Sequence record: KC690136
Source: Escherichia phage JES2013
DNA length: 64,000 nt
Strand: one strand, 5' to 3'
Each line of letters begins with the position of its first letter. Within the stretch, counting starts at the first letter, position 1. The translations under genes were made by a program, and so were the position numbers. The notes under the pieces were generated by a model, which saw nothing but the letters and a program-made list of their open reading frames with translations, did no database searches and had not been told where the DNA came from. Shown here piece by piece: positions 1,947-28,509 of the stretch.

Positions 1947-4900
1947 TTACTTCAGTTTCTCTTGCAACCCAGTAACAACCTCTGTCAATTTTTTAACCTG
2001 CTCCTCAAGGTCGGTTATTTTATCGTCCTGTTCCCTGCAAACCTGGACAAGCAAGCCTGTTACAGCTGCGTAATCCACGCTGTAGAATCTTTCCTCTGTT
2101 ATCAAAGGAGTTCCATCTTGATCAGGGTTTGGGATTTCCTTTCTTTGCACGAAAGAGCTAACTGCTTCCGGCAGCGCTTCAAGCACTTCTTGTGCTATAA
2201 CACCTGCATAAGGCATACCGTTCTCTTTAAGAGTGTAAGTATAACCCTTCATCTTCCGGATAGCTTCTAACGCATCAGGAATAACAGCTATGTTATCTTT
2301 CAGATCTCTGTCAGAACTCTGATTGACAGATGTGCAATTCACAGCGCCGTTTACAGAAAGATATCTTGATTTATCTGGCAAGGTACCGCAATGCCATACC
2401 CAATTTGATTGAGACTCGTCAAGAACCTTAAACTCTAACACGTTTGGACGATCTCCTGTGCTGCCGTTACCCCAATAATACATATGGGCGGCATTAGCAG
2501 GCATGTTGCCACCGTTATTAGTAACATGACTTCCAGAAATATATACCTTTAACTCTGGGGTTGGTATTTCCCCTTCCGGGGTTGTTCCTCCATACCTGAA
2601 GCTAACACCATTACCACCTGTTTGGGTCCACGGGCCCCAAGTGAAGACCTGTTTCACCATATTCCCATAACGTGTAAATCTATCGCCATGGTAGGTAATA
2701 TATTCTTGAACACACCCATCACCGTTATTGGCGTTATTTTGCAACACAATAAGTGTTCCGGCCTCATTTACGGGATAATGACGATCATATGTTGCATCAT
2801 TATTTGCAGGCTGATGGTAAATACCTTCCCACAATCCGTGATAGGTGTTAAGGTCTGAAGAACCAAGACCTTGACCCCTGTGTTGCATAGCCTTATTCCA
2901 GGGATGGTGATTACCACCTTCTATAGACCTGGTGTATAAGTTACTTTGTCTGCCAGCAATCTGGAAAGCGTAGTTTCCCGAGAATCCTACAGATAACCCG
3001 CCTACAACCATGGTATCTTGTGGGCCGTTAACATTACCAGCTATTATTTTTGACGGGTTGTTAGGCCCAAACTGGTTGTTCCAGTCTGCACCCGTGTGGC
3101 ATACAAAACCGCCCGGAGCTGAGAAAGTGCCATCTTTGTTGAAGTTGTAGAATCTATGAGCTGTGCCTACAACATCACGAACAATAACTTGAGCAGCTTC
3201 TGGAGTAGATCTGAACTCTGCCTGTCCTTGCAGTCTTGCACCATTACCACATTTAGAGGTAAAGGTGTTGTTGATCAGATCCTCTGTTCCTTCCGACGCA
3301 GCCTGGAACCCTGCATTAGAGAACAGTGCTTTTCGAGTGGTCTGACTACCAGGGCAAAGGTAGTCAATACCGTCTGCCCATAGCTCGACTTTAGGCATAT
3401 TCATTTTGCTCATCACAGCATAGCGTTCAGCAGTGCCTATATAGTGCCACTGTGTGCCGCCACCAGTGTAGAACCCTGAAGTACCTTTGAAGTCAACAAT
3501 AGGTCTGGTATTGGTGTTGTTATCTCCAAGAACAGCGAGATTCAAATCTGCTGACTGGAGAGGTGCAACGAACTTAACACCGTCCTGATTGTTTGTTACA
3601 GAGCCGACCTGGTAATCTTGCTCTCTGGTAAACACTTCGACAACATTTCTACTTGCGTATATGCTGACAGGGAAAGCACGAGCCTCTACATAGAAAGCAA
3701 CATACTCTTGTTTACCCCTTGTTGGAGCAACCATCCCAAGAAGTGCTTTTTCATTCTGGTAGAAATTTACTACCCCGTAGAAAGAGTCTCCTCTGTCTGT
3801 CCAACCACCAGTCCTATAGTGACACTGTAAGGTAGCACAGTTCATAGGGTCATTTCCAGATGACGATCTGGTAACTATGGTAATATCAGTACCAGTTGCT
3901 GGAGCATAGTACGGATCTGTTCTAACGATGATCGGGTAGTATTTCCCATCTTCCATCCCTGCGGTTCTTGGCAGTGTTAAGAAGTCTTTCACACCTGCTG
4001 CTATAGGAACTTTGAACAGATTCTGAGCATCTGCTAAAGTTGTAGCCCCAGTACCACCTGCGGCTTGAGGTAAAGGTTCCCACTTGGCCTTCCGGTTGTT
4101 ATAAACACCCCATTCCAGAGTGCCGTTACCGGATTCGTCCATCCCACCATCCCAGACAACCATCTTGGCGGCTTTCTTGGACCCCCAGAAGCCTCTTTCT
4201 GCCCCTGAACTACGGATCCATTCTCCAAGACCCCAGTTTGTCAGCTGACCAGTAAGATCCCCAACCTGCATGTATTTAGGGCAGTCTAACACGCCATCTT
4301 CGCGGAAACCTAAATATCTATGAGTTTCAGATCCTTTTGCACCTTTGTGCAGGTGGATTGTCAACCAAGCCTTATTGTCGTTTCTTACCTCAGAGTAGAT
4401 CCTATATCCATGCTCAAGGACACCGTCAGCGCTGTATTTGTCCCCGTTAACAATACCTGATGCTGACTTAACATCAGCAGAACTTTGAGACAGGTAAAGG
4501 TGCCCAAAGGTAGGGGAGTTTCTAGACCCGAGACCGATGTGCGCTCTAAAGGTATCATCGTTACGAGGTCTGACCATCGGCTGCCATGCAGTCCACTGAT
4601 TTGTGTTGGCCTGATAGGTTCTTAAATACCAAACATCTACGTTAGAGAATGGATAGTATTCCTGACGACAACCTGTACCGCCGTTAGCATTGTTCTGCCA
4701 AACAATCAGGTGACCAGCACCAGAACCTGCAGGGTAACCATTTGCCTCAGTTGCATAAGCAGTCATCGGCTGGTAGTATACACCATCCTGATTACCAGTC
4801 AAGTTATTGATATTGAAATTTGGCTCAAGGGCTGCACGTTGCTTATAGAAAGCACCGATATTGATACGGACTCCAGCGGCATCTCTAGCCCCTGTGCCGC

Positions 4901-25689: not shown

Positions 25690-25791
25690 AAGCTTTACCC
25701 CTCAAAACAGTATAACAAAATAGCCCTCGTGTTAGAGGGCTAGTATCTCCGATTACTCTATTCTACCACATCTAATTAAGATTGGCAACAC

Positions 25792-26913
25792 TTAGATAAA
25801 ACGCTTGAACATAGAAGGTGATGAGATTGATGGAATCACACAAGGAAGTGCTACCTCCTCTTTCTCCAGGAAATTAATCGCAGAAGCTACACAGTCGGCC
25901 CAGTCGTCTTTCCTGTTAAATGTTGATCTTTCCCCGTTGAATTTTTCAAGTTCAGTCAGAAATGCTTCCAGAGTATCAGGATGGAAACTGGATTTTACAA
26001 TCCTAACCATTCCTTGTTGGGCAAGATTGGCAAAAGGTGAGAACCTTGTCAGTTTAGATTTGTTGGAAGGCATTGGGTCTTCTTCAACCCTAAACCCTTC
26101 GGCGAGCAAGGATCTGGAGGATGTTAAGAACTCACTCTTACCTGCCTGACCGGGGTCCACAGAGAATACGATTATACAATCATCACCATCAAACTGCGCC
26201 TGTTTCCTGATGATCACATCTCGTTCACCAGCCTTTTTACAGAACTTGCCTTCCAGACCTGTGGAATACCTCCCGTCATCCACGTTCTCAGGACAATAAT
26301 CACCGGACAGGTAATAAAAGCCGTCGCTATCTTTACTTACCTTAACACTGGCGGTAAAGTCAGGAAATTTATTACCGGAAGTTCTCTCGGTTCCTGCCTT
26401 ATCCCATGCCCTGCAAGATACTGATCCAAGGGGTACTCTATCGGCATCACGAAGGAAAGATCTTTGAAAATAGTTTGCACCCTCAGGCTTTGCAAACCAG
26501 TTGCCATGAAGAAGCTGGGCTTTTTCAAGCTCGGGCAGACCTTCAAGAAAAGCAAGGTATTCTGGGTTGTCTCTCAAGCAGACAGGATTATCGAAGATTG
26601 TTGCGCCTATAAACGAGAATGACAACGGTCTTGGCTTGATCTCTACACCAAGTCCGTTAACCGTGGTGTATTTCTCTATCAACTCTTCCTTAGAGTCTCC
26701 CCAAATAAATTCACCGTCGCGTCGGATAAAATATCTTTTCTTACCGCATTTCTCCGGATCTGGATACCCTTCATCGTCCAACCACCATCTAACCAGTTTG
26801 GCAAGCATGTGTTCTGAATCTGGGTTACAGCTGATAACCATTCTTGATGGATACTTTGACTGAGATCGCAGACGAGACATCAGGTAGTCTATCTGTTCCC
26901 ATTCGAATTGTGT
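25792..26913 (-). CDS. terL: terminase large subunit, exon 2 (nuclease domain)
   Basis: C-terminal DDWADCVASAINF motif typical of terminase nuclease domain; in-frame stop only at 26917-26919, so exon can begin at 26913. Confidence 0.65.
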   Translation of the reverse strand, partial: TQFEWEQIDYLMSRLRSQSKYPSRMVISCNPDSEHMLAKLVRWWLDDEGYPDPEKCGKKRYFIRRDGEFIWGDSKEELIEKYTTVNGLGVEIKPRPLSFSFIGATIFDNPVCLRDNPEYLAFLEGLPELEKAQLLHGNWFAKPEGANYFQRSFLRDADRVPLGSVSCRAWDKAGTERTSGNKFPDFTASVKVSKDSDGFYYLSGDYCPENVDDGRYSTGLEGKFCKKAGERDVIIRKQAQFDGDDCIIVFSVDPGQAGKSEFLTSSRSLLAEGFRVEEDPMPSNKSKLTRFSPFANLAQQGMVRIVKSSFHPDTLEAFLTELEKFNGERSTFNRKDDWADCVASAINFLEKEEVALPCVIPSISSPSMFKRFI

Positions 26914-27796
26914 CGTTTATGTTCAGGCAAGGTCGCTAGTCTTGCCCCGCCATTTTCAGGCAGCTGCATGTCTCCATGCAGACCAGACTATATCTTATGA
27001 ATGTGTAAATACTCTGCCGCTCTAAGAATAGTTTCCTCATCTTCTTGGAAGAAACCTAAAGCTCTGTTGCATTTATCACAAAGCAACCCTCTTACAGCAC
27101 CAGTTTTATGGTCATGATCAACACAAAAGAAATCTCTGTACCCTTGCGTCCTATACTCATCGAGAGATATTCTACAAATGGCACACTTATGATCTTGATC
27201 TGAGAGTAGACGATAGTATTCATCTTTTGTTATGTGAAATTTCTTCTCAATCTGATAAAACTTTTCACACATCTTACACCTGTTCGTAACCAGATATACT
27301 TTACCATAGTCACGTTTTGTGTAAAAACTATCAGCGAGCATACTTTCATGACAAGATTTGCATTCAAAAAGTTCACCTTTCTTCAGCAAGTCTTGAATAA
27401 ATAATGCTGCGTCATCTCTCTTAACCATATTTTTGTTTTTACGAGATCCACCCTTCCTGTAGTACATATAGCATTCCTTGCATGTACCTGAGTATCCATC
27501 CTTGCTCTTAGATGATAAAAAGAAATCATCAATAGGTAGAACTCTTTGGCAATCCATACATTTTTTAGTATTACACATTCACCCTCCCGTTTCGAATCGC
27601 TTGATTCTACGTCTTTCGACTAGTCGTTGAACGTTCATCCTCTCGGATGCTTCGCTGCGGATTATCTAAACTAACACACTGTTACCATACCTTCGATCTC
27701 TCTTCGAAGCCTCTATCATGTTACCATGACAGGTTGGTGGTGTCAATAATAAAGATTTCCCCGCAATTAGGGAGGTTTTACGAGAGCTACAAATTA
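26914..27796 (-). mobile_element. group I intron interrupting terL, with embedded HNH homing endonuclease ORF
   Basis: Minus-strand conserved elements P (AATTGCGGGGAAA, ~27768-27756), Q (AATCCGCAGCG, ~27663-27653), R (GTTCAACGACTAGTC, 27632-27618), S (AAGATATAGTCT, ~26996-26985); candidate guide GCTCTC pairs with exon end GAGGGT; exact 3' boundary uncertain. Confidence 0.7.
26988..27578 (-). CDS. HNH homing endonuclease (Endonuclease VII family) encoded within the intron
   Basis: 196 aa; CxxC pairs plus DHDHKTGAVRGLLCDKCNRALG motif (T4 Endo VII-like); strong RBS GGGAGGG; stop codon lies inside the S element. Confidence 0.75.
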   Translation of the reverse strand: MCNTKKCMDCQRVLPIDDFFLSSKSKDGYSGTCKECYMYYRKGGSRKNKNMVKRDDAALFIQDLLKKGELFECKSCHESMLADSFYTKRDYGKVYLVTNRCKMCEKFYQIEKKFHITKDEYYRLLSDQDHKCAICRISLDEYRTQGYRDFFCVDHDHKTGAVRGLLCDKCNRALGFFQEDEETILRAAEYLHIHKI

Positions 27797-28222
27797 ACCC
27801 TCATCGAAGCAAACCATGGTGTACTCAAGCCCTTGATGGTTAAGCTTATCTTGTACATACTCCATGTGGCAGTATTTTACAACAGCTCCCTTTTTGCTTC
27901 TATCCCACTTGCCAGTGTTCGGATCAAACCGTGGAAAAATGAACTTATGATCCTTCTCTCTGAACTTTGGCTTAATGTTTTCAGGCAGATCGCTATAAAT
28001 AGCTACTGCTTTAGGCCATAGTCCACCCTCACCTTCCAACTGTGGGGTTGTTCTTCGGAACATAACCACAGAGCTGTGGGGGTCATCAATAATTTTAAGT
28101 GGCATCAACTGCAAGAGAAACGACTTGCCAGACCCTGCGGCACCGCCGATTACCAAAATATCTGCATCGTTTTCGAGGATCATCTTCTGCTTTTCAGAAC
28201 ACGGTCCGTAAATCTTAGACAT
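27797..28222 (-). CDS. terL: terminase large subunit, exon 1 (ATPase domain)
   Basis: Walker A GGAAGSGKS and Walker B MVCFDE; ORF stops right after Walker B with TAA that would be the first intron nucleotides. Confidence 0.7.
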
Positions 28223-28509
28223 TAACCTCTCTCCTTTGGAAACAGTGTTCTAATATAGTCTTGCAAAATGATCAATTTAGCTCTATCATTGCTACAAGAC
28301 AAATTATTATCCCTCATAATGCCAGAATTTACTGCATCTGGAGCACCTTTCTTCAAAGGCATAGCTTTAGCAGGTGGTTTCATGGCACCTTCCGGGGGTT
28401 TAACAATCAACCTTCCTACATCTGGAGGGTCAATCTTGTATTCTCTCTCAACGCTGGTTGCACACCCACATAATAAAAAGCACACAATAAACAGTGCAGC
28501 AACTCTCAT
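28222..28509 (-). CDS. putative o-spanin (Rz1-like outer-membrane lipoprotein)
   Basis: 95 aa; signal peptide with lipobox-like LLCGC, Pro-rich mature part; overlaps i-spanin by 4 nt. Confidence 0.45.
   Translation of the reverse strand: MRVAALFIVCFLLCGCATSVEREYKIDPPDVGRLIVKPPEGAMKPPAKAMPLKKGAPDAVNSGIMRDNNLSCSNDRAKLIILQDYIRTLFPKERG

Follow-up and report, generated by a model that had tools for sequence, protein, structure and literature searches.

Anatomy of a predicted self-splicing group I intron with an Endo VII-type endonuclease gene in the large terminase gene of Escherichia phage JES2013

The large terminase gene (terL) of Escherichia phage JES2013 was analysed within a stretch of 64,000 nucleotides (nt) of sequence record KC690136, hereafter the window. 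The gene lies on the minus strand, as do all the features described below, and is split after codon 142 by an insert of 883 nt at 27796..26914. Exon 1 (codons 1–142, 27797..28222), which was identified from the list of open reading frames (ORFs) and matches positions 2–104 of the Pfam Terminase_6N profile, encodes the Walker A motif GAAGSGKS (residues 27–34) and the Walker B motif MVCFDE (residues 136–141), followed by Gly142 (GGT). Its C-terminus, ...MVCFDEG, is followed directly on the 3' side by the stop codon TAA (27796-27794). Exon 2 (codons 143–515 plus stop, 25792..26913) matches Terminase_6N positions 111–211 together with Terminase_6C, and encodes the remainder of the ATPase domain and an RNase H-like nuclease domain. 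Once joined, the two exons have the features of a T4-like large terminase (Terminase_6N and Terminase_6C, Walker A and Walker B, RNase H-like nuclease), and their lengths (426 + 1122 = 1548 nt) add up to that of the uninterrupted terL ORF of phages phiWec189 and EmilHeitz. The insert itself contains a 591-nt ORF (26988..27578) for a 196-aa endonuclease. A previous reading of this DNA made without database searches (the sequence-only reading) had reported the exon 1 end and its stop codon as we found them, and had proposed that the insert is a group I intron with an Endo VII-type endonuclease, splitting terL after Walker B.

Removal of the insert gives back the gene of relatives that lack it. 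When the terL region was compared by BLAST with the fetched loci of the intron-less phages phiWec189 and EmilHeitz (DNA 97–99% identical), the alignments flanked a gap of exactly 883 nt, corresponding to 27796..26914, and precise excision restored the 1548-nt reading frame. The joined translation (515 aa) was 100% identical to phiWec189 TerL and differed by one residue from EmilHeitz TerL, with a predicted spliced junction ...MVCFDEG^TQFEWEQ... in the protein and GAGGGT^ACACAA in the nucleotide sequence (^ marks a splice site). Both the junction and the terminal (omega) G at 26914 had been proposed in the sequence-only reading, which had also named the alignment of the joined exons with intron-less terminases as a check. 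The insert starts with UAAUUUG... and ends with ...AUAAACG, while the intron-less site of phiWec189 and EmilHeitz reads ...GATGAGGGA/C ACGCAG.... In a comparison of 14 alleles (four with the intron and the endonuclease gene, four with an ORF-less intron and six without intron), the last base of exon 1 was T wherever an intron was present (all eight alleles) and A or C in each of the six intron-less ones, always within a glycine codon. The U·G pair of helix P1, described below, requires U at exactly this position, and the allele pattern fits that requirement.

The insert is also recognized as a group I intron by its RNA. Using Infernal in E-value mode on a 1-kb region, the Rfam group I model RF00028 matched 27806..26964 over its full length (model positions 1–253) with 46.5 bits and an E-value of 1.8e-10 (1.1e-8 on the whole window), and no further intron was found in the window at an E-value of 0.01 or below, the match at terL being the sole one. 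An ORF-less form of the intron (319 nt), about 98% identical to the window intron in the shared parts, scored 84.9 bits in phage rV5, 84.0 in naswa and 79.4 in LL12 (E about 1e-20), above the cut-off of 50. The Rfam search that had been suggested as a further check thus supports the earlier proposal. Two other kinds of intervening element, an intein and a group II intron, were ruled out by the stop codons in the terL frame together with the group I model match.

These data bear directly on the possibility that the terminase is truly split, i.e., that 142-aa and 362-aa polypeptides (the latter from an ATG at 26880, with which the downstream ORF taken alone begins) assemble without any splicing, the endonuclease gene between them being free-standing. 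This would agree with the stop codon that ends exon 1, with the presence of that ATG in the downstream frame, and with record KP869102.1 and several relatives, in which three separate coding sequences (CDS) are annotated. Against it, one Pfam ATPase domain spans the break: the Terminase_6N profile is interrupted between positions 104 (exon 1) and 111 (exon 2), and since it is shared out over both ORFs, these are the halves of one domain and not two proteins. Furthermore, a start at 26880 would lose 11 conserved residues (TQFEWEQIDYL) found in uninterrupted homologues, no Shine-Dalgarno-like sequence precedes this ATG, and the spacer is a full-length RF00028 match whose removal yields exactly the intron-less gene. 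We consider a split terminase scarcely credible; the correct gene model is one spliced 515-aa TerL, join(28222..27797, 26913..25792) on the minus strand, with a homing endonuclease encoded in its intron.

The anatomy of the insert, as read from the cmscan alignment and from minimum-energy folds, is that of a group I intron. The 5' strand of P1, GAGGGU^UA (27795..27802), contains the 5' splice site after U27797, and its 3' strand, the internal guide UAGCUCUC (27782..27789), contains GCUCUC at 27787-27782, which pairs with the exon end GAGGGU including the U·G wobble at the splice site, as predicted from the letters. Just 5' of the guide, UGU (27792-27790) could, judged by eye, pair with the exon 2 start ACA as P10. 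Further downstream, the alignment places the P3 5' strand CCUCCC (27770..27775, also paired in the fold) and the P element AATTGCGGGGAAA (27756..27768), which contains the P4 5' strand UGCGGG (27765-27760). An extended, branched P5 domain (27664..27755), which the alignment treats as a long insert compared with the Rfam consensus and the fold shows as a branched stem, separates P from the Q element AATCCGCAGCG (27653..27663), with the P4 3' strand UCCGCA (27661-27656). The P6a hairpin CAUCC-GAGA-GGAUG (27636..27649, from the minimum-energy fold) is followed by the R element GTTCAACGACTAGTC (27618..27632), with the P7 5' strand GACUA (27625-27621), and the S element AAGATATAGTCT (26985..26996, from the alignment and the ORF list), with the P7 3' strand UAGUC (26990-26986), lies beyond the endonuclease gene. 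Each of the four elements occurs once in the region and in the order P, Q, R, S that had been reported, and the complementarity noted for P4 (UGCGGG/UCCGCA) and P7 (GACUA/UAGUC) holds. The P7 pairing is a pseudoknot, present in neither the covariance model nor the minimum-energy fold, and was checked by eye; together with it, the core helices P3, P4, P6 and P8 are all present, and the intron ends in the terminal G at 26914.

Between P7 and the 3' strand of P3, a 29-nt insertion in the cmscan alignment can form P7.1 (GUC-GAAA-GAC, 27620-27611) and P7.2 (GAAUC-AAGC-GAUUC, 27607-27594; together 27594..27620), a pair typical of subgroup IA, and we classify the intron as IA-like. The minimum-energy fold shows P7.2 and the inner GUC/GAC stem, whose added outer pairs compete with the P7 pseudoknot. 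The P3 3' strand, GGGAGG (27583..27588), appears in both the alignment and the fold. At the 3' end (26926..26981) lie P9 (26981-26964, with a GAGA loop), P9.1 (26963-26947) and P9.2 (26946-26926), of which P9 was found in the cmscan alignment and all three in the folds.

Folding of the ORF-less intron recovered P1, P3, P4-P5-P6, P7.2, P8, P9, P9.1 and P9.2 in the minimum-energy structure, with a z-score of -5.5 and none of 100 shuffled sequences folding equally well. In the complete 889-nt RNA of the window copy, P3 pairs across the ORF (27775-27770 with 27588-27583), and a long P8, different from that of the ORF-less form, is formed by 27582-27567 with 26997-27013. The 5' strand of this P8 (27567..27582; duplex energy -17.6 kcal/mol) contains the endonuclease AUG (27578-27576), and its 3' strand (26997..27013) comes from the last endonuclease codons. 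Comparison of the ORF-bearing with the ORF-less intron showed that 27580..26999 (582 nt) stands in place of 18 nt forming a short P8 hairpin, indicating that the endonuclease gene came or went as a unit whose own ends substitute for P8. Its presence or absence as a unit in an otherwise identical intron is as expected of a mobile endonuclease gene.

The same exchange raises the question of whether the ribozyme is real but impaired by the endonuclease gene, so that splicing would be inefficient or dependent on a host or phage factor, or whether the endonuclease is an inactive remnant. The original P8 hairpin has indeed been replaced, the score falls from about 85 to 46.5 bits, and decayed intron endonucleases do occur, T4 I-TevIII being annotated as defective in some records. 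Yet the drop in score is the cost of the 570-nt insertion, the core strands are all intact and a new 16-bp P8 helix forms. Moreover, TerL is essential and 28 independently isolated, viable phages nevertheless have the ORF-bearing form. In every one of these 28 records, the endonuclease ORF is undamaged, with an identity of at least 98% and all the catalytic residues present. We therefore judge impairment to be very unlikely.

Several points weigh against a functional group I intron at this site. The window copy scores 3.5 bits below the RF00028 gathering threshold (50), and a default Rfam scan of the whole window at that threshold missed it, returning four tRNAs only and no group I match; the shortfall arises because about 570 nt (the 591-nt ORF) are inserted in P8. 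All copies of the intron are 97–100% identical and offer almost no base-pair covariation, the exception being the wholesale replacement of P8. Allele comparison leaves the junction ambiguous by a slide of 1 nt, GAGGGT^...ACG^ACA versus GAGGG^T...AAC^GACA with the same protein product, because the junction base varies among alleles, and the boundaries 27796..26914 follow from the group I rules that U precedes the 5' splice site and G ends the intron; these rules alone settle the slide. No clear co-conversion tract was detected in the exon flanks of the 14 alleles: apart from the splice-site T, no site there follows intron presence, and neighbouring synonymous differences (ACA/ACG, CAA/CAG) are mixed in this respect. 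Finally, we infer splicing in JES2013 from anatomy and comparison, and the activity and target of the endonuclease likewise.

With these points taken into account, 27796..26914 is very probably a group I intron of the phage IA type that is functional in self-splicing and interrupts terL at Gly142, immediately past the Walker B/catalytic-glutamate motif. Once terL is transcribed, the end of exon 1 (GAGGGU) would pair with the guide GCUCUC to form P1 with its U·G wobble, and the conserved P3–P9 core would fold around it. A guanosine would then attack after U27797, and the freed exon would in turn attack after the terminal G at 26914, joining ...MVCFDEG to TQFEWEQ... in an mRNA for the normal 515-aa terminase. 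This guanosine-dependent self-splicing is predicted, and a terL intron of a different genus, that of Pectobacterium phage CB7 (a related Certrevirus), which also carries an HNH gene, has been shown to splice by reverse-transcription PCR (PMC7344957). In a mixed infection, the 196-aa Endo VII-type (DHHRN) His-Me endonuclease, whose gene has replaced the P8 arm, would most likely cut intron-less terL, and repair would copy the intron, or the endonuclease gene alone, into the cut gene (homing).

Assignment of the intron-encoded protein to the Endo VII type, already made from the letters, was borne out by a match of the ORF to Pfam Endonuclease_7 (PF02945; E = 2e-21, 76.1 bits, cut-off 23.6), by matches to several PHROG 'endonuclease VII' families and, among solved structures (PDB), by matches to Hpy99I and T4 Endo VII. 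An ungapped HMMER alignment that placed the DHDH of T4 Endo VII opposite DFFC was discarded as an artefact, since the DHDH of the window protein lies 5 residues further on and the Pfam match covers the whole domain. The residues of the DHHRN motif are D154, H155, H157, R163 and N171, accompanied by the zinc-binding CxxC pairs C132/C135 and C167/C170. Four more CxxC motifs (at 7, 33, 73 and 101) occupy the N-terminal 110 residues, which presumably form a DNA-binding module. Among 28 phage records, the protein is conserved at 98% identity or more, in every case encoded within the terL intron and with all its catalytic residues, and the next best full-length relative, from Listeria phage LPML1, is only 41% identical. 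We think it quite likely that the endonuclease is an active homing enzyme.

The sequence-only reading had placed the endonuclease ORF between R and S with its stop codon inside S, and the overlap with the ribozyme proved extensive. The ribosome-binding site GGAGG (27587-27583) is part of the P3 3' strand, which thus doubles as the Shine-Dalgarno sequence of the endonuclease, and the start codon lies in the P8 5' strand. The last codons and the stop codon make up the P8 3' strand, J8/7 and part of P7, the TAG (26990-26988) coinciding with the initial three nucleotides of the P7 3' strand. With the ribosome-binding site in P3, the start in P8 and the stop in P7, endonuclease translation and ribozyme folding probably exclude each other, and the folded ribozyme would block translation. 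T4 likewise hides the ribosome-binding site of an endonuclease within RNA structure.

Inside the P5 extension and upstream of the endonuclease gene, at 27746-27718, there is a sigma-70-like site, TTGACA-17-TAACAT, which has an upstream TG and agrees with the consensus at 10 of 12 positions. Its first hexamer lies in sequence common to the ORF-less introns. As a consensus match, it could drive transcription of the endonuclease gene independently of terL.

The sequence-only reading had implied that the intron was new, and this did not stand: the intron is already known from rV5, LL12 and the BASEL phages. For rV5, Kropinski et al. 2013 (PMC3606486) devote a section to 'Introns in terminase' and acknowledge D. 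Shub, who defined the intron. In GenBank, terL of rV5 (DQ832317) is a join of three pieces and those of LL12 and Bas50 are joins of two, the LL12 record annotates an 'intron-containing gene', and the naswa and slur16 records give the exons as separate CDS. The BASEL phages (Maffei et al. 2021, PMC8594841) have a two-piece terminase CDS with a 'putative homing endonuclease' inside it. Fang et al. 2018 (PMC6083498) gave as intron-encoded the Endo VII-motif protein of 'Escherichia phage 2 JES-2013', a name that matches the species Vequintavirus JES2013. What is new here is the corrected annotation of KP869102.1, where three separate CDS (85355-87785) stand for exon 1, the endonuclease and an exon 2 truncated at its 5' end (from the internal ATG at 26880), and the joined annotation is missing. 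The importance of the finding is thus mainly one of annotation, as this record and many sister records show the terminase as two 'terminase-like' fragments and a 'recombination endonuclease VII'. The case also illustrates that group I introns containing an ORF escape the default Rfam threshold, and that they are readily found when compared with ORF-less or empty alleles.

Among the closest counterparts, intron 1 of terL in rV5, LL12, naswa and slur16 occupies the same insertion site in the same gene, and its ribozyme is about 98% identical outside P8; these copies are 319 nt long, with a short P8 hairpin and without ORF, whereas the window copy contains the Endo VII gene. The BASEL phages Bas50 DrSchubert, HeinrichReichert, WalterGehring and MaxBurger have the same 883-nt intron with the endonuclease gene (98.9–99.1% DNA identity), with no substantive difference. 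As for the endonuclease, the DHHRN homing endonuclease family was defined by Fang et al. 2018 (PMC6083498) with F-CphI of cyanophage S-PM2 as type member. F-CphI has the same D, H, H, R, N motif and two zinc-binding CxxC pairs as the window enzyme, but it is free-standing next to the psbA intron, while the window enzyme is encoded inside P8 and has a different, four-CxxC N-terminal region.

The introns of T4 td and nrdB (with I-TevI and I-TevIII) are also group I introns of a phage, and in them, too, a peripheral loop contains the endonuclease ORF. They differ in their host genes and in their endonuclease families (GIY-YIG and HNH), and the cmscan alignment of the window intron is without P2. 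DNA similarity of the intron core extended to T4 td (82% over 77 nt), T4 nrdB (72% over 109 nt), phiKZ-like jumbo phages (about 72% over 200 nt) and an nrd intron of Certrevirus phiTE. The latter is not a terL intron, being located in the ribonucleotide reductase gene beside an HNH gene. Group I introns in the large terminase gene also occur in other phage groups, namely in CB7 and in Lactobacillus phage LL-H (Mikkonen and Alatossava 1995, as cited in Kropinski et al. 2013, PMC3606486). No new biological principle is involved, group I introns with His-Me endonucleases at catalytic motifs of essential phage genes being a classic pattern.

Across the rV5-like phages, the intron is polymorphic in presence and in content. 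The 2.6 kb around it were 100% identical to E. coli O157 typing phage 4 (KP869102.1; Vequintavirus, species Vequintavirus JES2013) and 96–99% identical to about 118 further rV5-like phage records. In the phage collection searched, the 883-nt form was present in 28 records and the 319-nt form in 23, and terL was uninterrupted in roughly 65 further Vequintavirus records. Phages rV5 and HdK5 have a second terL insertion of about 979 nt (1741-2720 and 2305-3284 in the respective fetched loci), at the position corresponding to window 26596/26595 (TerL codon ~248, ...SFIGATIFDNP...); it contains a different HNH gene (ORF65 in rV5), gave no RF00028 match at the gathering threshold, and is absent from the window terL. 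It is a tentative and rather doubtful proposition that rV5-like phages, at >97% identity, hold in a single essential gene all stages of a homing cycle (the empty site, the ribozyme lacking an ORF, the ribozyme that has gained the Endo VII gene, and a second intron that is optional), combined with a coupling of translation to misfolding or with endonuclease movement independent of the ribozyme. If the overlap did couple translation to ribozyme misfolding, or if the enzyme targeted ORF-less introns as well as empty sites, these phages would offer a convenient system, provided by nature, in which to study the colonisation of introns by endonuclease genes.

Retrieval of the relatives also brought up records with unexpected features. 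In 18 'Campylobacter phage' records (host C. jejuni; MG065644-MG065690), the terL region (window 25700-28300) was 97–99% identical to that of E. coli rV5-like phages, and all three intron states were represented among them; these labels are probably wrong, or the samples contaminated. Two genomes with an intron-less terL, MW883061.1 (40261-40311) and OK272482.1 (56541-56591), contain elsewhere a 52-nt match (94%) to intron nt 133–184 (about 27664-27613), which, from its similarity, may belong to another group I intron in a different gene. The LL12 paper reports that the DNA polymerase gene has a group I intron.

The minus-strand gene order around the intron is four tRNAs, i-spanin, o-spanin, terL and portal. 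The tRNA cluster (29862-29326: Arg-TCT, Thr-TGT, Met-CAT and Pro-TGG) lies upstream of the spanin-terL block. The genes for i-spanin (28904-28506) and o-spanin (28509-28222) are directly upstream of terL and not in a lysis cassette, the o-spanin stop codon overlapping the terL start codon; the same arrangement was described for CB7, rV5 and PVP-SE1 (PMC7344957). Just past the terL stop codon, a terminator-like hairpin followed by a T run (25742-25721) lies in the gap between terL and portal, where the rV5 and Murica records annotate a terminator.

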